Shown here: positions 392 through 28,848 of the stretch, piece by piece
Position numbering within the stretch: the stretch's first letter is position 1
Layout: every line of letters begins with the position of its first letter
From: a virus
Taxonomy: Duplodnaviria > Caudoviricetes
Reading direction: 5' to 3' (one strand)
Virus record (IMG/VR): IMGVR_UViG_3300017766_001811
Coordinates: 1 to 35,304 of that record
Length of the DNA stretch: 35,304 bases
Notes under the pieces: generated by a model
Told to the model about the DNA's origin: nothing
Seen by the model: only the letters and a program-made list of their open reading frames with translations
Database searches by the model: none
Made by a program: the position numbers and the translations under genes

Positions 392-1222
392 CTAGTGTCC
401 GCTGCTCCCGAAACCCTTCTCGCCACGTGTGGTCTCTGACAGAGCAGCATGGTCGATACGCAACACCTCCATACCCATGGCATAGGTGGGGAAGGGGATA
501 GCCTGCACCAACCGTTCACGTGGTTGGACAGTCACAGGCTGGTCACCGATGTTCTGACACACCACAAACATCGGACCCCTATACCCTGCATCGATCACAC
601 TGGGTGGGACATAGAGCCGACGTCTGGCAAACGTGGACGACCTACCCAACACCAAGGCCCACATACCATCAGGCCACTCAAGATGGACATCACACGGTAC
701 GGTGGTGATCTCACCAGGAGCCACAGTCACAGGCTGGTCGTTGCTGCAGAACAGGTCAAAACCCGCATCGTCATGATGTGCCTTGTCCGGTACCAATCCT
801 GAACCGGCGACCTTCAACACCGCTGGCTCAGACACGACAGATCCCAACCCGTCCAACCAACGGTACAGACTGTCCCAATCTCCCGGCTCGATCATCGTCA
901 CACCAGGAGTACCGAACAGCGCGAAACCCGCAGTCTGACCGATCACCAACACAGGGATACCCAGGGTGGTGGCTTCTCCGATCTCGACACCACAACCGAC
1001 CGAATGGACACCGGCCGGCCAGTAGACCACAACACCATCCGCAGCCTGGAGCGCGTACCGGTTGACAGTCTGAACCCGTGAATCCATGATCGTCAGGTCG
1101 ACATCCCATGCTCCTCCTGGGCGGTAGACGGTCAGTCCACAGTTGATGATCTCGTTGGTGAGTTCGCTGACCTCCAACGGGTTGATGGTGGCGAAGTCCA
1201 ACGGGTGGGCTAGGTAGATCAC
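392..1222 (-). CDS. Fusion of a nucleoside 2-deoxyribosyltransferase/dNMP N-glycosidase-like domain and a trimeric dUTPase-family domain
   Basis: N-terminal IYLAHP...ADGVVV...SVGCGVEIGEA...PVLV (NDT/DNPH1-like). C-terminal dUTPase motifs AGFDL, GRSS, VIDAGYRG, RLVQ, RGEKGFGSSG. GTG start at 1222 overlaps the upstream stop (GTGA) and follows GGAGG. Confidence 0.8.
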   Translation of the reverse strand: MIYLAHPLDFATINPLEVSELTNEIINCGLTVYRPGGAWDVDLTIMDSRVQTVNRYALQAADGVVVYWPAGVHSVGCGVEIGEATTLGIPVLVIGQTAGFALFGTPGVTMIEPGDWDSLYRWLDGLGSVVSEPAVLKVAGSGLVPDKAHHDDAGFDLFCSNDQPVTVAPGEITTVPCDVHLEWPDGMWALVLGRSSTFARRRLYVPPSVIDAGYRGPMFVVCQNIGDQPVTVQPRERLVQAIPFPTYAMGMEVLRIDHAALSETTRGEKGFGSSGH

Positions 1223-1566
1223 AGCCAGCCTCCTGTCTGGCGGATCTTCATGGCCATCATGCTGTAGAAATGCAGGTCGTACCATGAGTCACTGTCTGGG
1301 ATCTGACCCATCTCGTATCCTGAGAAGATCCGTGCGATCTTCCCCATGGTGTAGAACGCAACAGCGATCTCCTCATCGCTGATCTCGGTCGAGATACCGG
1401 GTGCGAGCCGGCGCATCGCTGCTCCGATAGTGTGGAGGTCACCTGATCCGTAACGGACGGTCTTACCCATGTCGTTGTTGATCCGTTCATGGAGACTGTT
1501 GATCCACTCTAGGAGTGGGGTCAGAGCGGGGTATTCCCACTCGAGTTCCTGGTTGGTTGGTTCCAT
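1219..1566 (-). CDS. All-helical MazG-like / DUF1599 (Nmad1)-like nucleotide-modification-associated protein
   Basis: K..RYGS ... GKIARI ... DSWYDL..Y pattern. Lies between purZ and the dUTPase fusion. Confidence 0.5.
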   Translation of the reverse strand: MEPTNQELEWEYPALTPLLEWINSLHERINNDMGKTVRYGSGDLHTIGAAMRRLAPGISTEISDEEIAVAFYTMGKIARIFSGYEMGQIPDSDSWYDLHFYSMMAMKIRQTGGWL

Positions 1567-1587: not shown

Positions 1588-2688
1588 TCAGATGGTGGGT
1601 AGGTCGCGGAGCCAGACGATGGTGTCGGGTCCGGTGGTGACTGCGGCTGGTGGGCAGATCTCTTCTGCGAACCGGTCCAACCATGTGTAGATCTCAGAGG
1701 TGAGGTCGGCACTGTTGGCGACGGTCGGATCGATGTAGTCCAGGAAGGACAGGATGATGTGGACGTTCGGGTTGGTGGGGTTGTCGATGTCTCCACCGTT
1801 TGCCTCGTACGCTCCGATCACCAGATCCTGGTCCCATTCTCCGATCCTACGGATCTTCTGTGTGACGGTGGTACGTTCGGGCTGGATGTAGCCGTTGCTC
1901 ATCTCGTTGAGGTCTGCCCAGTCGAGTTCCCCGTTGAGTGGTCCGCTGTTGCCAGCGACACGGATGGGGTAGGTGCGTGCGACGAGCCATGTGTCGGTGC
2001 GTGCGATCCTGTGGTCCCAGGGGTTGAGTCCGGCCATGGCGAGGAAGTCGATAGCGCGGGTGTTGCTGCTGGTGCAGTGGGGGTAGTGTCCGCTGTGGAG
2101 TCCTAGTCCGTAGCCCTGGGTGCCTTCGATGATGACGTCCCATGTGGTGTGGCTGGCGAGGAGCCGGTGTACGGGGTCGGGGGTGGTCCACTGTCGGGTG
2201 TAGGTGTTGTCTCGTGCGATGTTGGCCTGTCGCATGAGTCGTGCTGCTCGTGCTGCTCCGATGCCTTTGCCGGTGCTGCCGATCTTGCCGGTGAGGTCGG
2301 CTGTGGTTTCGGCCTGCTTGTGGTGGGGTTCGAGGATGGTGGCCTGTTCGGAGATGAGAAGCCGGTCGGATACGTGGTAGCCGGCCTGGTCGAGCCGGGT
2401 GATCTCGTCTTCGAGGACGTCGATGTCGATCTCGGAGCCGGCTGCGAGGATGAGGTCGCAGGTGGGGTCGACAACAGCGGTGATGGGGATGGTGCGTAGT
2501 GCCCAGATTTTTTGGTCGATGTTGCCCTGGGCGCTGTGGCCTGCGTTGGGTCCGGCTACTCGGATGGTGGCTCGGTTGGGGGTGTGGTTGGGGTGGTTGC
2601 GTCGGGCGCGGTTGATCTGGGCTGTGATGTGACCTTTTGCTTCGCTTCCGAACTGTGCTCCGACGATGATGTCGAGGTGTCTGATCAT
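1588..2688 (-). CDS. purZ: PurZ (PurZ0-type) 2-amino-deoxyadenylosuccinate synthetase, a PurA paralogue
   Basis: PurA-fold motifs GPNAGH, GSTGKGIG, EGTQG, YPHCTS. The P-loop GAQFGSEAKG has Ser where PurA has catalytic Asp (GDEGKG). Also PIRVAGNSG and ERTTVTQKIRR. SFLD keeps the guanine-binding Asp, as in GTP-using PurZ0. Confidence 0.85.
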   Translation of the reverse strand: MIRHLDIIVGAQFGSEAKGHITAQINRARRNHPNHTPNRATIRVAGPNAGHSAQGNIDQKIWALRTIPITAVVDPTCDLILAAGSEIDIDVLEDEITRLDQAGYHVSDRLLISEQATILEPHHKQAETTADLTGKIGSTGKGIGAARAARLMRQANIARDNTYTRQWTTPDPVHRLLASHTTWDVIIEGTQGYGLGLHSGHYPHCTSSNTRAIDFLAMAGLNPWDHRIARTDTWLVARTYPIRVAGNSGPLNGELDWADLNEMSNGYIQPERTTVTQKIRRIGEWDQDLVIGAYEANGGDIDNPTNPNVHIILSFLDYIDPTVANSADLTSEIYTWLDRFAEEICPPAAVTTGPDTIVWLRDLPTI

Positions 2689-6602: not shown

Positions 6603-7055
6603 TCAGCCCTTTCTCATCCGGTAGCGTTCACGTTCGTCGGTACCTGCCCAGATCCCTACGGTGTTGTGACGCAGTGCGTATTCTAGGCATTCGGCCTGCA
6701 CTCCACAAGTGGTACAGATCTGTCTTGCAGGTTTGGTCTTGTCCGGCTGGCGGTGTGCTGGCCGTCCAGCACGGTCCTGTGGGAAGAACAGATCGACCGG
6801 TTCACCTTTACACGCGGCATGGTCCATCCATTCGACCAGGACCGGCTGTGTTGGCATCTTGATCTTGAAGATCTTCACCTGTACCGACAGTGCACACCAT
6901 CGGGTGGTTGCACTCAACAGTTGATGTAGGTAACGGCGGTTGTAGCCGGTGATCTGTGAGATCTCGGTGTAGGTCATCCCTGACCGGTTCAGGTCACGTA
7001 ACCGTTGTTGGACTGCTGTGACCGGGACCAGCCCGAAGGGGTCATCGTCGGTCAC
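6603..7055 (-). CDS. whiB: WhiB-family transcription factor with N-terminal HTH
   Basis: WMDHAAC...LFFP...ICTTC.V.AECLEYAL...GIWAGT..RER. N-terminal GMTYTEISQITGYNRRYL is HTH-like. Confidence 0.88.
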   Translation of the reverse strand: MTDDDPFGLVPVTAVQQRLRDLNRSGMTYTEISQITGYNRRYLHQLLSATTRWCALSVQVKIFKIKMPTQPVLVEWMDHAACKGEPVDLFFPQDRAGRPAHRQPDKTKPARQICTTCGVQAECLEYALRHNTVGIWAGTDERERYRMRKG

Positions 7056-7810
7056 CGCACAGGGTCCACATCTGCTGCGAACGCCAACCCTGGGAGCGCA
7101 ACCCTACGGATCACGGATGACGACACGTCACCCTCGTTCCATGTGTCACCAGCATACTGGGCCACCATCTGGAGGTAACCGGCTGCGAGGATCTGAGCAG
7201 ATCGGTTTGAGATCCCGACCGCGATAGCACTAGCAACCTGCAGGTCTGTGGATCTCATACCGGTCTGACCAACACTGTTCATCACCTTTGTGAACCCGAA
7301 CTGTTGTGCAACAGCAAGATCCAACCGGGTGCAGAGATCTGCGGTACCCAGGAGATCCATCTGATCCTGGTGGGTACCGACTGCTCCTTTGATCCCACGG
7401 AACGGGTACCAGTCAGGCCAGTTGACCAAGGTGGGGTTCTGATGTCGACTGGCCAACAGCGACATGGTTTGAGCCATCTGTACCTGTGTGGCGTTGTCTA
7501 CCACATCGGCAGAGGTCATACCTAGATGGAGGATCTGATCACAACCGATCTCGTCGATGGTCTGTTCCAACAGCGCTTTGATGTCATGTCGGGTGGTGCG
7601 TTCTCGTTTCTCGAGTTCCCACAGGTCGATCTTCCCCTGACGCCACCGGAGCGCATCGACCACCCATCTCCAAGATGGATCTACAACATCGTGGTCGATA
7701 TGGAACTGCAACACTGTTGCCCATATCTGGTGGATGATCTGCCGGCGGTTCTGGTCGGACCAGATGTGGACCATCTCAGATGTCGGTGTCAGGTAGGTCT
7801 CTGGTGGCAT
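7052..7810 (-). CDS. Minimised adenylosuccinate lyase (PurB)-like protein
   Basis: EM..IWS, ERTTRHDIKA, HLGMTSAD, YPFRGIKGAVGT, SVGQ..RS.D and GDTWNEGDVSSSVIRRVALP match actinobacterial PurB. The GR(S/T)H and SSxMPxKxN motifs and the C-terminal domain are absent. Confidence 0.8.
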   Translation of the reverse strand: MPPETYLTPTSEMVHIWSDQNRRQIIHQIWATVLQFHIDHDVVDPSWRWVVDALRWRQGKIDLWELEKRERTTRHDIKALLEQTIDEIGCDQILHLGMTSADVVDNATQVQMAQTMSLLASRHQNPTLVNWPDWYPFRGIKGAVGTHQDQMDLLGTADLCTRLDLAVAQQFGFTKVMNSVGQTGMRSTDLQVASAIAVGISNRSAQILAAGYLQMVAQYAGDTWNEGDVSSSVIRRVALPGLAFAADVDPVR

Positions 7811-8979: not shown

Positions 8980-9066
8980 GTCTGCCTCCTCAGGCTCTGT
9001 CGGTGGTGTCTCCTCCGACCCCCAAAGTAAACCACACCCCAACCACCCATGTCAAGTCCTTTTACG
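8980..9066 (-). promoter_or_regulatory. Repeated promoter/leader/RBS element, copy 1
   Basis: GTAAAA, TTGACA (9055-9050), 18-nt spacer ending TGG, TTTACT, then GGGGGTCGG...CCGACAGAGCCTGAGGAGGC-ATG. Confidence 0.8.
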
Positions 9067-10339
9067 CGTCGGGTGGGTCTGTGGCGTCGATCCTACGCGC
9101 AACCCAGGCTGCTACCGGAGCCACCACACCGTTACCACACAACGTGTAACGGGCACCGTCACGCATCTCGATAGTATCACCAGCCTCATCTACACCCAGG
9201 GCTGTGTGCAGGTCGGGCCAACCCATAAGACGTTCACATTCCAACGGGGTCAGACGACGAACTGCGAGATCCGGTATGTTGTACAGATCTTCTACCTTAG
9301 CAACAGCATAAGTCTTGCTAGTGGTCAGAGGTGGAACAGTGTCTTCATGGATATCACCAGCGAGTTGGTTTCCTTGCCAACCTAAACTGACCACTTCAGT
9401 GGCATCTCCGATCGTGGGTATAAGATTGCCCTCACCAGCATCGATCCGAGTCGGTGGCCCACCAGCATCCCGCGCCAACAACTGGTTAGCGACCTTCGGC
9501 AAGGCCTGCGCCAAAAACAGGTTCGCATCGACCTCTGGGGCACCCATCACCTGATTGCCATAGGCTGCAGTCAAAGAACCAACAATATCCGGCACCAACG
9601 GTTCCTTACCCATCAACGGCGTTGGGGTCTGTGTCCCATCCGGCTCTACCACAACATGGGTCCCGATACCATCTAGGTCGGAGTGGCTTCGCGAGATACG
9701 ACCCGCTCCAAGGCTGCCTGCAACACCACCGGCAGTGTCTTCTCGCGTCTGGCGGATCTCCTGATGATACCTGCGCATGCCTTCGCTGTCAGAAAGTACT
9801 TCTGACCAGGATTCGGCTCGAGGATCGAAACCAACGACACCGATAACACGTCGACGTCGCTGGGGGACTCCGAAGAACTGTGAATCAACAACCCGGTGTT
9901 CCTGGACCACCGCGCCGATTTCGTCCCACGCGGCATAACAAGATCCCAGGGTGTTTCCGAGTGTGAGGAGTCCTTGGACGTTCTCCCAGACGACCCACCT
10001 AGGGGAAGCACCCATTGTTCCATCTCGCATCTCCTTTACAATCCTGACGAACTCGTAGAACAAACCTGAACGGGTACCTTCAACCATACCGGCACGCTGG
10101 CCGGCAGACGACAGGTCCTGACAGGGGAAACCACCGACGATCACATCGACCGGTTCGATCTCAGCACCGTTGATCTCGGTCACATCAGGGTAACGGGCCA
10201 CATCAGGCCAGTGGTACCGTTCAACCATCTGTGCATGTTTGTTGATCTCAACCTGCCAACGGCACGACCAACCTTCGGACTCTAGCCCGAGATCGATACC
10301 GCCGGCACCAGCAAAAAGACTACCGAACGTCCTGGTCAT
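9062..10339 (-). CDS. C5-cytosine DNA methyltransferase
   Basis: Motifs FAGAGG, GGFPCQ, WENV, PQRRRR, RRLTPLECERLMGWP, GNGV. Confidence 0.93.
   Translation of the reverse strand: MTRTFGSLFAGAGGIDLGLESEGWSCRWQVEINKHAQMVERYHWPDVARYPDVTEINGAEIEPVDVIVGGFPCQDLSSAGQRAGMVEGTRSGLFYEFVRIVKEMRDGTMGASPRWVVWENVQGLLTLGNTLGSCYAAWDEIGAVVQEHRVVDSQFFGVPQRRRRVIGVVGFDPRAESWSEVLSDSEGMRRYHQEIRQTREDTAGGVAGSLGAGRISRSHSDLDGIGTHVVVEPDGTQTPTPLMGKEPLVPDIVGSLTAAYGNQVMGAPEVDANLFLAQALPKVANQLLARDAGGPPTRIDAGEGNLIPTIGDATEVVSLGWQGNQLAGDIHEDTVPPLTTSKTYAVAKVEDLYNIPDLAVRRLTPLECERLMGWPDLHTALGVDEAGDTIEMRDGARYTLCGNGVVAPVAAWVARRIDATDPPDA
9673..10023 (-). CDS. Overprinted alternative-frame polypeptide inside the methyltransferase (M.EcoHK31I beta-like)
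   Basis: Own AAGGAG RBS. ESPS...SLVSILE...KYFLTAKACAGIIRRS.RR.K.LP..LQAAL pattern. Confidence 0.65.
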   Translation of the reverse strand: MEQWVLPLGGSSGRTSKDSSHSETPWDLVMPRGTKSARWSRNTGLLIHSSSESPSDVDVLSVSLVSILEPNPGQKYFLTAKACAGIIRRSARREKTLPVVLQAALERVVSREATPT

Positions 10340-24627: not shown

Positions 24628-25641
24628 TCAGATGTCTAGCCTCTGAAGTAGAGACTGTGCATGTCGTTCAAACGTCCGGTCGGCTACCGCACGTCTGGCT
24701 TCCTCTGCTGCACGGTCGCGCAACGTCGGGTTGTTCGCTGCCCATCGTAGCACGTCACCCAACTCACTTGGGTTGTCTACCACCGGCAACATCGGAAACA
24801 CCCGGTCGCTCTCCGGCCGGCTCTGACGTGCAAACCACAAACCACATGCAGCCATCTCAACCTCACGTGGTCCCATCGCCCAACCATCCTGGAGGTCTGG
24901 CCGGTTGGCTTCTGTCCTATATAGGTTGAACGATGTTTTGGAACGCCGGTAGATCTCTGCGGTCTGGTCGTTGTCAAGACATTCATCCAGGCCATGGATG
25001 ACATGTGGCTCAAGGGTTGGACCGCAATCTTTCCAGTTGCCAGCCAAGGTCAGCCCGATACCGTCCCAGTCGACCTGTTCGAGCCACTGTACGCGGCTGG
25101 GATAGCCGGTCCCGACGAACGAACAGTCTAGATCTCGGTCGTTGGTCCCAGGGTAGTGGACCGTCGGATCGTGCGCATGTGGGATGTAGACCGTATCAGT
25201 GATCGGGCTGTAGAGATCGATATTGGTAGGGTCGTTCAAAACCACATGATCAAACAGATGTGCCAGCCCGATCTGTCGGTCGTCCTCGTATGGACTTTCG
25301 GTGTAGATCGCCACCAGCCGGTGCCGACGTGCCCGCATCACCTCGAGGACAAACGGCGGTATCCAGAACGCAGAGACGACCACCACGATGTCGGGCCACC
25401 AGTCATAACATGCCGACCGGAGATGTTGTGCTGCGACCTCCATAGCAGCCTCTGTCGGGAACGCCTTCACGTATTCACCCTCAGGTGATTTGACGTAGGC
25501 TCCGGTGTAAAAGGTCAACCGGTCGTTCAGATTGTACTCACGTACCTGCACGCCACACGTTGTAAGTCCTCGCACCCAACCACGATAGACATCGGCTACA
25601 CTGAACTCAGGTCCTGGATGTACAACCAGAGCGCGTGTCAC
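24628..25641 (-). CDS. Glycosyltransferase, GT-B fold (CgeB / Glyco_trans_1_2-like)
   Basis: TESPYED, SFVGTGYPSR, IYRRSKTSFNL, MGPREVEMAACG, HAQSLL ending. Confidence 0.8.
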   Translation of the reverse strand: MTRALVVHPGPEFSVADVYRGWVRGLTTCGVQVREYNLNDRLTFYTGAYVKSPEGEYVKAFPTEAAMEVAAQHLRSACYDWWPDIVVVVSAFWIPPFVLEVMRARRHRLVAIYTESPYEDDRQIGLAHLFDHVVLNDPTNIDLYSPITDTVYIPHAHDPTVHYPGTNDRDLDCSFVGTGYPSRVQWLEQVDWDGIGLTLAGNWKDCGPTLEPHVIHGLDECLDNDQTAEIYRRSKTSFNLYRTEANRPDLQDGWAMGPREVEMAACGLWFARQSRPESDRVFPMLPVVDNPSELGDVLRWAANNPTLRDRAAEEARRAVADRTFERHAQSLLQRLDI

Positions 25642-26249
25642 TTCAACAGGTCCACATGGCTGTTGAACGTGCTGGCCGCAAACACATCTTGTGCCTTGGG
25701 TCGGGCTGAGGTGATCGCCTTACTCCAGGTACTGCGACCCTTCACCCCTGGGTGCATAACAGCGGCTCTGAAACCACCACCGGCTAGTGCTAGTGCTCGC
25801 TGCCGTTCACCCGATTTGCGTGACGACAGAAGCCGGTTCTTACTGAGTCCGTAACCGCGCTCAGCCAACTTCCTTTTGGTCATGTTGTACCGACGGACAG
25901 AGACACCAGCCACCATCGGGTGTTCGGGTGCACCAGCCTCTAGGACCTTCCAGATACCCTGTGGTCTCGGGTAGAGGATCGACGTGGCACGCACAGTGCC
26001 TTTGATATCGAACCCGGCTGTGATCTTACGTCCGGTACGTTCCTTCACACCGGCCTGGTCGCTCTTACGTTTCGCTCCCCAACGAGACAACCGCATATCC
26101 GAACCAGCGACGCGCCGGCCGGCCAGCAACACGTGGTCCTTGTAGACGAACGTCGCTGCAAACACAGCCTTACGGTTGGTCTCACCACTATGTTTGGCGA
26201 CACTCTCCATCTTCTGAGCCAACTGTGTGACAGAGAACGACGTACCCAT
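25638..26249 (-). CDS. Neck / tail completion protein (HK97 gp10-like)
   Basis: Basic protein with LEAGAPEH and V.HPG.KG...W; position in the neck module. Confidence 0.6.
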   Translation of the reverse strand: MGTSFSVTQLAQKMESVAKHSGETNRKAVFAATFVYKDHVLLAGRRVAGSDMRLSRWGAKRKSDQAGVKERTGRKITAGFDIKGTVRATSILYPRPQGIWKVLEAGAPEHPMVAGVSVRRYNMTKRKLAERGYGLSKNRLLSSRKSGERQRALALAGGGFRAAVMHPGVKGRSTWSKAITSARPKAQDVFAASTFNSHVDLLK

Positions 26250-26653
26250 CAGCCCATGACCTCAACCGCTACGGTCGCTGCCCACATCGGGATCTCACCT
26301 ACCGACAGTTCACGGATACTACCAACCTGGGTGACCATCACAGACCCAACCGTGCCATCCAACGTCGGATCAAGTTCAACCGCACAGACCACACTACTGT
26401 CAACGGTAGGATCGATCAACGTCAGGAGATCGTCCCAACGGTCGGTGTTCCTGGCTGAGACCACCACGGTCAGTTAGACCTCTGTCCTACGGGCGGTCTC
26501 ACCGTACAACAGGTGTGGGGTGTAGTCAAACCCGGTGACCATCACGGCTGGCGGTTCAACCATCTGAGGTGGGACACGGTAGATGTTCAGCCCGGTGGTG
26601 TGCTCTTCAAGCATGACCACCAGCCCCTCAAGGATCTGACTGTTGGAGATCAT
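26249..26653 (-). pseudogene. Tail terminator-like gene interrupted by an in-frame TAA at 26476-26474
   Basis: ATG 26653 (ATGA overlap) reads MISNSQILEGL...PPAVMV...RTEV*LTVVVSARN...VEVMG in one frame; 134 aa if read through. Confidence 0.7.
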
Positions 26654-27270
26654 GCGGTGAACCCGTCTAGGATACGGTACGGATCGAGCAGGGTTCGAAC
26701 ATCTGGGTCGGGCTGGCTAGAGACACGAACCACACCGAACTCACCGAACCCGGCCACACCAAGCGGCGATTCTTGACGTCGGGCTACTCGAGCGATCTGG
26801 ATCAGACAAGCGCGTTCAATAGCAGCCGGCACAGCCGACCAGCCCCAGACACCTGTGATCTTCACACGGTTGAGACGGTCCTGGTCGATCAACGGTACGG
26901 GCCACAGGAAATCACCCAGGGCACGAACCTGTCGGACCGGGCTGGTCTCCGGTACGGACCGGTTGACCGGGAGGGTCTGGTACTCGCCTGCGGTGAGGGT
27001 CTTACCGTAGGTACCGTCGCCTTCCTCATCGATCTCGATTGAGGTTAGCGTGGTCAGGTCGTTGAACGCACCAAGATCCAGGATCATGTAGTCGTCGGGT
27101 GTGAACGTGCGTGCTTCGGTGACTTGGAAGAAATGCCGCCGGCAATACCGGTCGATCATCCGCGACACGGTGGTGATGACATCATCGAGATCGGTGGTGT
27201 CGATGGTGTCGTTGAGACCGACGTAACGTCGTGCTTCTGCGGTGGTGGTGTAGCCGTTGGTGATGGTCAT
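26650..27270 (-). CDS. Head-to-tail adaptor
   Basis: NGYTT.AE, SRMIDRYCRRHF, GVWGWSAVP..IERACL, DPDV..LLDPY. Confidence 0.85.
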   Translation of the reverse strand: MTITNGYTTTAEARRYVGLNDTIDTTDLDDVITTVSRMIDRYCRRHFFQVTEARTFTPDDYMILDLGAFNDLTTLTSIEIDEEGDGTYGKTLTAGEYQTLPVNRSVPETSPVRQVRALGDFLWPVPLIDQDRLNRVKITGVWGWSAVPAAIERACLIQIARVARRQESPLGVAGFGEFGVVRVSSQPDPDVRTLLDPYRILDGFTA

Positions 27271-27275
27271 CGCGG

Positions 27276-28094
27276 TCAGATCCGTTCAGGGTTGCGCCAC
27301 CAGAACACACAGAGGATGGCTACTGCTGGTGTCCATACTACAGGCACTGTGCGCATCGCTGCTATCGCCACCATCGGACCGGCTGCGGTCTGTACCAGCC
27401 GTACGGTGTCGGTCGCCACCAAGACCTGCAGATGTGCCATCACGAGGGTTGTAGCAGTCTGCAGGTCGAGACTGCCTAGGGCTAGCAGCAACGGTCCCCA
27501 TGGCTCGAGCCACAACCGGGCGTCTCGCCACCTGCCGGAGTGGGCTGCGAGTGCGGTCCTGACCGGATGGTCGTGTACCATCCTCAGATGTGGTTGGTTG
27601 GTGACCGGATCGATCTGTGGCCGGCGTACCAGCCCGGTGACCGCGGGTAGCAACAGGACGGGTAGCAACAACGGTGTCCATGCCCACAGTGCAGCCCAGA
27701 CCGGTGTGGTCTCTTTGATGCAGGAGGCCACGATCAACAGCCCGATGGCCAGCCACCACAGGTCTGATCTCCAGGCTGCTGCAGCCAGCACCGCTAGTGC
27801 TATGGCGGGGAGGTCAACACCGACCGGTCTGACCACCGCCGGACCCAAGACACCAGGCATCGCCAGAAGAGCCACGGAAGCAGCCACGGAAGCCACCAGA
27901 GCCAACCCCGCTGTCGACGCCAACCAGAACTGACCTAGGCCAAGGAGAACCCACGAGAGACCCCAGACGACCCACCACCGTCGCAACCGGTCCCGACAGA
28001 TGGCAGGTAGGAGCCACCGCAGGTTGAACGGACGGGCCACAGACTGGCCCGAACCGGCCAACAGGTACCGGGCTGCGTCAGGTCCCAGAGACAT
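27276..28094 (-). CDS. Multi-pass membrane protein, possibly a GT-C-type glycosyltransferase
   Basis: Many hydrophobic segments; PD..RY N-terminus, PF.LRWLLP, IKET motif, DTVR; coupled to the GT-A gene. Confidence 0.5.
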   Translation of the reverse strand: MSLGPDAARYLLAGSGQSVARPFNLRWLLPAICRDRLRRWWVVWGLSWVLLGLGQFWLASTAGLALVASVAASVALLAMPGVLGPAVVRPVGVDLPAIALAVLAAAAWRSDLWWLAIGLLIVASCIKETTPVWAALWAWTPLLLPVLLLPAVTGLVRRPQIDPVTNQPHLRMVHDHPVRTALAAHSGRWRDARLWLEPWGPLLLALGSLDLQTATTLVMAHLQVLVATDTVRLVQTAAGPMVAIAAMRTVPVVWTPAVAILCVFWWRNPERI

Positions 28095-28848
28095 CTAGGA
28101 CCTTCACCGGCTCGTCACGGACATCGGCTGGCCACAGGACCCTGGGACCCTTGTGGTGTCCCACGTGGGTGGTACAGTCAACATGGACCGTATAGCCGTG
28201 TTCACGGGCACGCAGACAGAAAGTGATGTCTTCACCGATCCACCACTCAGATCCGCTCTCACCATAACGGATCTCTTCACCGAACCAACAGTTGTTCGAT
28301 CCGTCAGCGTTCTCACGCATCGTCTCAAACACCTCACGGTGTATCAGGAGACATCCGGTACCGGTTGCACCGACCTCAGCCACCACATCATCAGGCCAGT
28401 CCAACAGGACCTGAGTCACAGTCTCAGGATCGTCACTGAACAAGGTTGGGATCAGCCCTTCTGCGGTCTGGATCACACACAGTCCACCCAGGATCTTGGT
28501 GTCTGTCTGGATCGCACGCGCCACCAACCTGTGCAACAGGTCAGGTTCGAACACCATATCGGTGTCACAGAACCACAGCCATTGGCACTGTGGGTACTCG
28601 TCGAGGAACACGGCCACAGCCCGGTTCCTGGCTTTGGTGATGTTGGCACCGGACTCTACACATAGGTAGTTGTCCAACATCCGCAGGTCCAACGGGGTCG
28701 GCTGGTCTGGTGCACCGGCCTTCTCCCACTGCATGACCGCGTATTCCCGGTCAAAGGTCTCAAGTTCGGTCAGTGACCGCATGAAACGAGAAGAGATGTC
28801 GTGGCCCGATGATGGGAACGCCAACAGTGCTCGACCAGGATGGTCCAT
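28078..28848 (-). CDS. Glycosyltransferase, GT-A fold (GT2-like)
   Basis: ITKARN, WLWFCDTD (DxD), TGTGCLLIHR, GEDITFC, VGHHK. Confidence 0.85.
   Translation of the reverse strand: MDHPGRALLAFPSSGHDISSRFMRSLTELETFDREYAVMQWEKAGAPDQPTPLDLRMLDNYLCVESGANITKARNRAVAVFLDEYPQCQWLWFCDTDMVFEPDLLHRLVARAIQTDTKILGGLCVIQTAEGLIPTLFSDDPETVTQVLLDWPDDVVAEVGATGTGCLLIHREVFETMRENADGSNNCWFGEEIRYGESGSEWWIGEDITFCLRAREHGYTVHVDCTTHVGHHKGPRVLWPADVRDEPVKVLDVSGT

Follow-up and report, generated by a model that had tools for sequence, protein, structure and literature searches.

A conserved short form of PurB that lacks the catalytic loops, found in a PurZ0 virus, and its possible co-assembly with host PurB

The window analysed here, a virus record of 35,304 bases, is linear and is estimated to be 93% complete. 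An intact open reading frame (ORF) of 252 aa on its minus strand (7810-7052), confirmed by translation, encodes a short PurB-like protein that is called mini-PurB in the following (Table 1). The gene overlaps its neighbours at both ends, the start of a WhiB gene with its stop codon and a RusA-like resolvase ORF with its own start; therefore, it lies within the replication operon. No sigma-70 promoter or terminator was matched between 6400 and 9200 of the window. Near-identical DNA is present in freshwater metagenome runs; run X3 (share 0.96) was not marked as a possible source, and no RNA dataset was found among the listed holders of such DNA. The motifs named by the initial annotation, RHD (from residue 74), HLGMTSAD (95), GQ (181) and NEGDVSSSVIRR (225), as well as His123, were all found where it had placed them. 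By homology, we take Ser232 and Arg236 to be involved in phosphate binding.

Table 1. Features of the mini-PurB gene and of the putative Z-pathway genes in the window
Feature	Position	Strand	Evidence or remark
Pocket-only PurB (mini-PurB), 252 aa	7052..7810	minus	ORF translation and homology
RHD motif, residues 74-76	7583..7591	minus	His75 and Asp76 invariant, 112/112
HLGMTSAD, residues 95-102	7505..7528	minus	Thr99 and Ser100 invariant; Ala101 in place of the Arg of cellular TSRD
Junction 1, about residues 122-132	7415..7447	minus	Segment with the catalytic His (GR[S/T]HN) deleted
GQ, residues 181-182	7265..7270	minus	Gln182 invariant
Junction 2, about residues 199-204	7199..7216	minus	SSAMPHKxN loop deleted
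NEGDVSSSVIRR, residues 225-236	7103..7138	minus	Ser232 and Arg236 invariant
PurZ0-type synthetase, 366 aa, GSEAKG motif	1588..2688	minus	NCBIfam NF038379, 303.6 bits (cut-off 300)
115-aa ORF of no listed family	1219..1566	minus	Follows purZ0 in 25/52 PurZ0 loci
NDT-like and dUTPase-like fusion, likely DmtZ-DutZ	392..1285	minus	Match to phage fusions

The best solved relative of mini-PurB is the PurB of M. smegmatis (4NLE; total E 6e-34). The two proteins align in three blocks (residues 10-121 with 29-137, 132-198 with 194-261, and 205-247 with 311-353), the alignment skips about 138-193 and 262-310 of 4NLE, and it stops at 353. Therefore, mini-PurB is missing two internal segments as well as the C-terminal domain, and the absence of the catalytic His loop, the Ser loop and domain 3, which the initial annotation had read from the sequence, was borne out by alignment to actinobacterial PurB. 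An AlphaFold2 model of mini-PurB alone, based on an alignment of 111 sequences, had a confident fold (mean pLDDT 92.6, pTM 0.91). It superposes on PurB along its full length (Foldseek TM 0.81-0.82 by query; VIA: Z 23.9, rmsd 3.0, 244-248 residues aligned, 37% identity), and according to the model and the structure comparison, domains 1 and 2 of the fumarase/aspartase-superfamily fold are present. Taken together, mini-PurB shares the fold and the RHD, TS, GQ and WNEGDVS motifs with actinobacterial PurB (M. smegmatis 4NLE; M. tuberculosis 9OO0/9OP0; TIGR00928), but it lacks the His loop, the Ser loop, domain 3, the N-terminal Arg-Tyr and the TSRD motif, which is replaced by TSAD. Under curated cut-offs, it reached a TIGR00928 score of 93 versus the 326 needed and had no Pfam match (PF00206) at E 0.01. 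By catalytic criteria, its sequence places mini-PurB outside PurB.

The missing PurB segments were encoded nowhere in the window record or in the whole records of two other viral carriers (L001 and L002), while the positive control L205 was detected. A split gene was rejected on this basis. The 61 proteins that matched at E 1e-20 and have a length of 598-2000 aa all had PF00206, and a fusion partner was seen in none of them; lengths of 442-597 aa were covered only by a search of representatives at 50% identity. The extra tail of one protein, P0155, consisted of low-complexity sequence only.

A protein search with mini-PurB yielded 295 matches, and 113 of the 120 listed matches are not longer than 345 aa. 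The main alignment comprised 112 short forms, namely the query, 110 of these 113 proteins (P0002, P0020 and P0021 were left out) and the L002 protein, and it was compared with 155 cellular PurBs (from 160 loci listed, on metagenome and genome contigs) and three full-length phage lyases. The matches listed from the metagenome and genome contigs, which stem from 4 of 64 parts, were all full-length cellular PurBs. The median pairwise identity of the short forms was 44%. Representatives at 50% identity included further members. When viral contigs were scanned with single proteins, nothing matched; pattern scans of viral contigs added one full-length lyase (L238) and zero new short forms, and a BFVD search found only full-length lyases. 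The ESM Atlas contains an unnamed cluster of 78 members, which may be the mini-PurB family; its commonest phylum is Pseudomonadota (37 of 78 labelled). The family is real and conserved.

The same two segments were removed throughout the family. The spacing between S100 and G139 was 29-78 residues (median 39) in the short forms versus a median of 85 in cellular PurB, and the spacing between Q182 and W224 was 40-59 residues (median 46), again versus 85. The tail after R236 had a median of 20 residues versus 148 in the cellular proteins, and domain 3 was absent. Thus, the deletions described in the initial annotation as clean and in-frame recur family-wide, but their edges vary and are not base-exact.

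In PurB, each of the four active sites is built from the regions C1, C2 and C3 of three monomers; C2 contains the catalytic His and C3 the catalytic Ser, and phosphate binding is aided by an N-terminal Arg-Tyr from a different monomer than the one that contributes the D119/R370-type pocket residues (accessible text of PMC13539675). Seven residues, H75, D76, T99, S100, Q182, S232 and R236, were invariant in 112/112 short forms. In contrast, the N-terminal Arg-Tyr was present in only 5 of the 99 short forms with enough N-terminus, versus 152/152 cellular PurBs, and the SSxMxxK Ser loop (C3) was present in 0/112 versus 153/155. The His-loop segment (C2) was deleted in all 112; an [RK][TS]H triplet occurs elsewhere in seven of them, and their His-loop columns are empty. 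In summary, the short forms keep what a subunit gives to its own site and have lost what PurB lends to its neighbours, that is, C2, C3, domain 3 and Arg-Tyr. The finer assignment of residues to subunits rests on the human numbering, which we assume to apply. Because the short forms were gathered for their resemblance to the query, and the NEGDV and TSxD motifs were used to pick the cellular set, the conservation of such motifs is partly built in, whereas the counts for Arg-Tyr, the His loop and the Ser loop are free of this bias. Regardless of its function, it is unusual for a conserved family to retain just one side of an active site that is shared between subunits.

Position 101 was Ala in 110 and Cys in 2 of the 112 short forms, but Arg in 155/155 cellular PurBs. 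The TSRD Arg is also changed in the three full-length phage lyases of the actinobacterial type (to Cys, Ser and Ala). Apart from R101A and T104V, the changes specific to the family were a few conservative swaps. Several residues on the retained helices that are near-invariant in cellular PurB are changed in the short forms (equivalents of 22, 108, 198, 241, 247 and 248), and the central and last helix, 237-250, is hydrophobic at nearly every position.

Strain variants were analyzed in the contigs of run X5; contig cover was uneven in runs X4, X6, X7, X9 and X11 and played no part in the interpretation. The 34 differences listed inside the gene (the table has 15 further rows) fall into 32 codons, 24 of which are synonymous and 8 non-synonymous, and the pN/pS of mini-PurB among these listed differences is about 0.10. 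Together with the 112 homologues that share the deletions and the invariant pocket residues, this agrees with the earlier view that the protein is under selection. Decay or an assembly artefact was ruled out by the homologue family sharing both deletions and by the pN/pS value.

In a tree with broad outgroups, the 26 sampled short forms formed one side of a branch among actinobacterial-type PurBs, with a support of 91/95, which is under the starred threshold; the main TSAD clade had a support of 100/99. The earliest short-form branches are P0146 and P0132, which have TGRD and hence retain the Arg, and P0107, P0112, P0136 and P0160, which have TSCD. Two of these, P0107 (WP_320783417.1) and P0112 (CAM5397442.1), come from Streptomyces assemblies. 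Most of the earliest branches keep longer helix remnants, but they are already without the loops, without domain 3 and, where the N-terminus is present, without its Arg; P0146, P0136, P0107 and P0112 have lost all three while retaining long helices. By descent, the short forms belong to the TSRD/NEGDVS (actinobacterial) type of PurB. The three full-length phage lyases were placed within or beside the short forms in smaller trees and outside of them with broader outgroups, and because of this unstable placement the claim that the short forms descend from these lyases was dropped.

One explanation is that mini-PurB is a self-sufficient enzyme with a rebuilt mechanism, either a slow lyase that would use His75, Glu226, Asp228 or substrate assistance, or a catalyst of another reaction on the open pocket, which could admit larger nucleotides. 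E70, H75, H95, D102, E226 and D228 are invariant in the short forms, and the protein occupies the functional slot of a lyase. However, these residues are equally conserved in cellular PurB, the family-specific changes such as R101A and T104V are non-catalytic swaps, and the 112-row alignment contains no family-specific invariant polar residue and hence no new catalytic candidate. The initial annotation had proposed a lyase that uses a relocated His123, but column 123 is a gap in 54/112 homologues, the commonest residues in this column do not include His, and the sequence of both junctions varies across the short forms; His123 as a catalytic residue was rejected for this lack of conservation. 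Moreover, known members of the superfamily build their site from three conserved regions (accessible text of PMC2779060). A self-sufficient enzyme therefore seems quite unlikely.

The synthetase of the window is closest to PurZ0 (45% to that of Gordonia phage Archimedes) and has a Ser in place of the catalytic Asp of PurA in its GSEAKG motif. The 115-aa ORF had no Pfam, PHROGs or NCBIfam match and, as we take it, resembles all-alpha NTP pyrophosphatases; together with its counterparts in L168-L219, it is a candidate Z-pathway gene. The NDT-dUTPase fusion matches proteins of Arthrobacter and Streptomyces phages at about 31-33% along 93-96% of its length and, judged by this similarity, is likely to be DmtZ-DutZ. 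In PurZ0 phages, dATP and dAMP are removed by proteins of the DutZ and DmtZ kind (accessible text of PMC12884076). The window record had no DatZ-type match, and no PF00476 match (PolA, the family-A polymerase DpoZ) was found in this linear, 93% complete record. The window belongs to a lineage of about 32-35 kb with PurZ0 and a DutZ-like protein, which also has a primase-helicase, an exonuclease, WhiB and a resolvase (L169, L172, L174, L175, L178, L180, L184 and L188). Neither the window nor the flanks examined in this lineage had a PolA match, and Z DNA may be copied by a host polymerase there, or the substitution may be partial.

Two other IMG/VR records carry the short gene. In L001, purZ0, a 116-aa ORF, the fusion and a PolA-like gene lie within 10 kb. 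G002 (61% complete) had no PurA-like match; its contig ends about 1 kb past the short-gene locus and, with the gene order compared by eye, before the place at which purZ0 would be expected from L001. PurZ0 is thus present in 2 of the 3 viral records that give context to the short form, which upholds the proposed link to purZ, albeit on few records. The mini-PurB gene is 4.4 kb and about 8 kb away from purZ0 in the two records and is not adjacent to it. It could be argued that mini-PurB has a role outside of Z synthesis, that it binds a purine-nucleotide signal (ZMP/ZTP or a defence messenger), and that the link to purZ0 is a by-product of shared ancestry. These distances, the restriction of the link to 2 records, the approximately 110 protein clusters without visible context and the homologues in Streptomyces assemblies all fit such a role. 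Nevertheless, it is very improbable, as both records with a complete replication region carry PurZ0, the succinyl-binding TS motif is invariant, and, of the three full-length phage lyases that share its PurB type, two (L205 and L238) are in PurZ0 records. From the sequence evidence, mini-PurB likely acts as part of the PurB step in Z synthesis.

PurB homologues beside PurZ0 are already annotated in GenBank as PurB-like adenylosuccinate lyases (Gordonia phages Ghobes gp36, Archimedes gp38, Frizzle and Sapo; Streptomyces phages Hiyaa gp76, Galactica, Keanu and Spocter). Like mini-PurB, they are phage PurB homologues in genomes with purZ0 and a dUTPase-like gene, and several are shortened at the C-terminus. 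However, RTH and SSxxHK are retained in the ones that were examined, which represent another type of PurB, whereas mini-PurB is without the loops. A tblastn search with mini-PurB (P0001) at E 0.01 misses these Gordonia and Streptomyces lyases, and the protein had no real match among cultured phage records.

Of 50,697 records of cultured phages, 194 have a match to PurZ0, including 105 from Arthrobacter, 18 from Microbacterium, 6 from Gordonia and 5 from Streptomyces. Three full-length PurB queries of different types matched 5-6 Gordonia and 5 Streptomyces phage records, but no Arthrobacter or Microbacterium record in this collection; for two of the queries, the matching organisms were listed in full, and for the third, all but one record. 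The records that match PurB and PurZ0 were seen to be identical for Archimedes, Ghobes and Hiyaa; for the others, this was deduced from equal counts. The PurB of Arthrobacter is of the E. coli type, as are those of 41/41 genomes sampled from its order; across the class, this type was found in only 1/51 genomes sampled (the unpublished G472 was counted as a non-match). Streptomyces and Mycobacterium have the TSRD type, and the types of Gordonia and Microbacterium are presumed from those of their relatives. The Streptomyces-type motif was absent from 401 genomes of the genus of G486 and from 401 genomes of the family of G004, which is not the relevant group. In PurZ0 phages, the presence of a phage lyase thus tracks the PurB type of the host (yes for Gordonia and Streptomyces, no for Arthrobacter and Microbacterium), on a handful of related phage lineages whose records are not independent. 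With so few independent lineages, the pattern fits the assumption that TSRD-type PurB probably handles the PurZ0 product, 2-amino-succinyl-dAMP (dSMP), poorly.

In addition, 52 PurZ0 loci were analyzed, one of them in L001; of the remaining 51 records, 50 were searched whole. Full lyases were found in 11 of the other PurZ0 viral records, 9 by the whole-record search and 2 in flanks with the same profile. No short form is among them; both catalytic loops (His and Ser) are retained in all 11, and 10 of the 11 are of types unlike the TSRD type. The short form itself is present in only 1/52 loci (L001). The initial annotation took it as established that host PurB performs the step after PurZ; as a universal premise this is incomplete, because several PurZ0 phages encode a full, annotated lyase. 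Relatives with the gene set of the window often have PurZ0 without any PurB (L169, L175, L184 and L188, 89-100% complete), and therefore, the mini-PurB gene is accessory. Full-length actinobacterial-type phage lyases with intact catalytic loops are located at L205:10423-11853, L238:9431-10897 and L003:6951-8384. A very divergent phage lyase, in which YTH and SSTLVHK replace the usual motifs, was observed in a PurZ-like record (L209:12537-13637).

We favour the reading, with a probability of roughly 0.45, that mini-PurB would be a subunit that co-assembles with the TSRD-type PurB of the host, contributes a pocket for the Z precursor, borrows the catalytic loops of the host and silences the host pockets. 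dSMP would sit in the phage pocket of the mixed PurB and would be cleaved to dZMP by catalytic residues of host subunits. The Arg-to-Ala change after the TS motif would presumably widen the pocket for the 2-amino group. Phages of TSRD-type hosts would appear to need their own dSMP pocket; a phage lyase of a foreign type would have to keep its catalytic loops, while one of the host type could lean on host subunits. In a 2:2 tetramer with the phage subunits at two positions that do not serve each other, two phage pockets would be live and two host pockets dead, and such a tetramer would make dZMP while, as a predicted side effect, AMP synthesis of the host falls. The more specific proposal that mini-PurB takes two positions of the host tetramer, that only hybrid sites work, and that it thereby both completes Z-nucleotide synthesis and switches off host AMP synthesis, is possible but on balance doubtful. 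We infer the ligand, the partner, the stoichiometry and the effect on AMP.

Several results support co-assembly. The loss is one-sided, as the own pocket is retained in 112/112 short forms and the lent parts are gone, and the earliest short forms were already without the loops, domain 3 and the Arg while their helices were still long. The 11 full lyases with their loops are a natural control that favours this reading, because the 10 of foreign types presumably could not mix with TSRD-type host PurB. The association of phage lyases with Gordonia and Streptomyces, and not with Arthrobacter or Microbacterium, points to a need for a phage pocket. The replacement of the TSRD Arg in all short forms of the alignment and in three full-length phage lyases also counts for co-assembly, as does purifying selection (as estimated among the differences listed), and a hydrophobic helix 237-250 would be expected if it were buried in an oligomer.

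Other points count against it. Host PurB tetramers are probably slow to exchange subunits. Random assembly would leave many sites dead and could block the SAICAR step, on which the supply of dGMP for the phage depends. If the changed helix residues are at the tetramer interface, they would weaken the pairing with host PurB. Likewise, the link to purZ rests on 2 records and 1/52 loci, P0146 and P0132 keep the Arg and two basal forms come from Streptomyces assemblies, Pseudomonadota is the commonest phylum in the ESM Atlas cluster, and the host-type pattern comes from few related phage lineages.

Alternatively, mini-PurB could act on its own as a monomer or homo-oligomer that holds dSMP or a related succinyl-nucleotide uncleaved, and shields it, hands it on or relieves product inhibition of PurZ0. 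The model folds confidently alone (pLDDT 92.6, pTM 0.91), several cellular-invariant helix residues are changed, and self-association could bury the hydrophobic last helix. On the other hand, the invariant T99/S100 and H75, which presumably hold the succinyl arm, suggest that this arm is in a reactive pose, and a stoichiometric sponge should not be able to drain a flux metabolite. Furthermore, much of the PurB site comes from other subunits (accessible text of PMC13539675), so that a lone half-site should bind weakly, and a stand-alone binder leaves unexplained why other PurZ0 phages have full lyases in the same slot. It appears unlikely.

It is also conceivable that mini-PurB is a dominant-negative inhibitor only, which would enter host PurB tetramers and poison AMP synthesis without making dZMP. 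With sites made by three subunits (accessible text of PMC13539675), a subunit without His and Ser loops would kill neighbouring host sites, and a lower dATP level favours Z incorporation, in a record without a PolA or DatZ match. However, a pure poison needs no intact pocket, and yet seven pocket residues are invariant in 112/112; in addition, the phage would still need a dSMP lyase. The initial annotation had suggested that such an inhibitor replaces DatZ, which is unnecessary, as the window has a DmtZ-DutZ-like fusion that already covers dATP removal. This role of mini-PurB is decidedly unlikely.

A co-assembling subunit with one side of the site has partial parallels in the superfamily. In argininosuccinate lyase, shared active sites permit intragenic complementation between subunits. 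The Agrobacterium CMLE (2FEN/2FEL; Z 21.6) is a chain of the same fold that is short at the C-terminus, to which the nearest named Atlas clusters by features belong, but it matches PF00206 and keeps its internal loops, whereas mini-PurB has two internal deletions. Delta1-crystallin is an inactive paralogue (accessible text of PMC2779060); it is full-length, eukaryotic and structural, whereas mini-PurB is viral and retains one side of the site only.

For Z synthesis, a bioRxiv preprint (2025.10.22.683976, accessible text) assigns the step after PurZ to host PurB, and the supplement of PMC12884076, as far as accessible, has PurB supplied by hosts "or uncharacterized phage proteins". The accessible main text of PMC12884076 does not mention PurB or a lyase, and neither does that of PMC8342488 by term search. 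No description of a loop-less PurB form was found in the open literature searched, the scope of which did not include the original PurZ/PurZ0 and mycobacterial PurB papers, and Pfam, PHROGs and NCBIfam contain no entry for it. This is in congruence with the initial annotation, which knew of no such protein, and the mini-PurB family is apparently undescribed. If co-assembly is true, it would be a new viral route to redirect host metabolism, in which the specificity of an enzyme is changed from inside the oligomer. If the heteromer holds, mini-PurB would be categorically new. No description of a viral specificity-swap subunit of this kind was found. The analysis also makes a neglected question testable, namely whether host PurB is sufficient for Z synthesis. 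From the comparison of host types, E. coli-type PurB is predicted to suffice and TSRD-type PurB to be insufficient; such a difference would account for the presence of a lyase in only a part of the PurZ0 phages.

Two further observations were made in these genomes. The window encodes a C5 cytosine methyltransferase on the minus strand (9062-10339), in a PurZ0 genome, and in L001 a methyltransferase-like gene lies just upstream of purZ0. Two glycosyltransferase-like genes and a gene for a membrane protein are situated among the head and tail genes of the window (24628-28848, minus strand), which suggests glycosylation of the virion.
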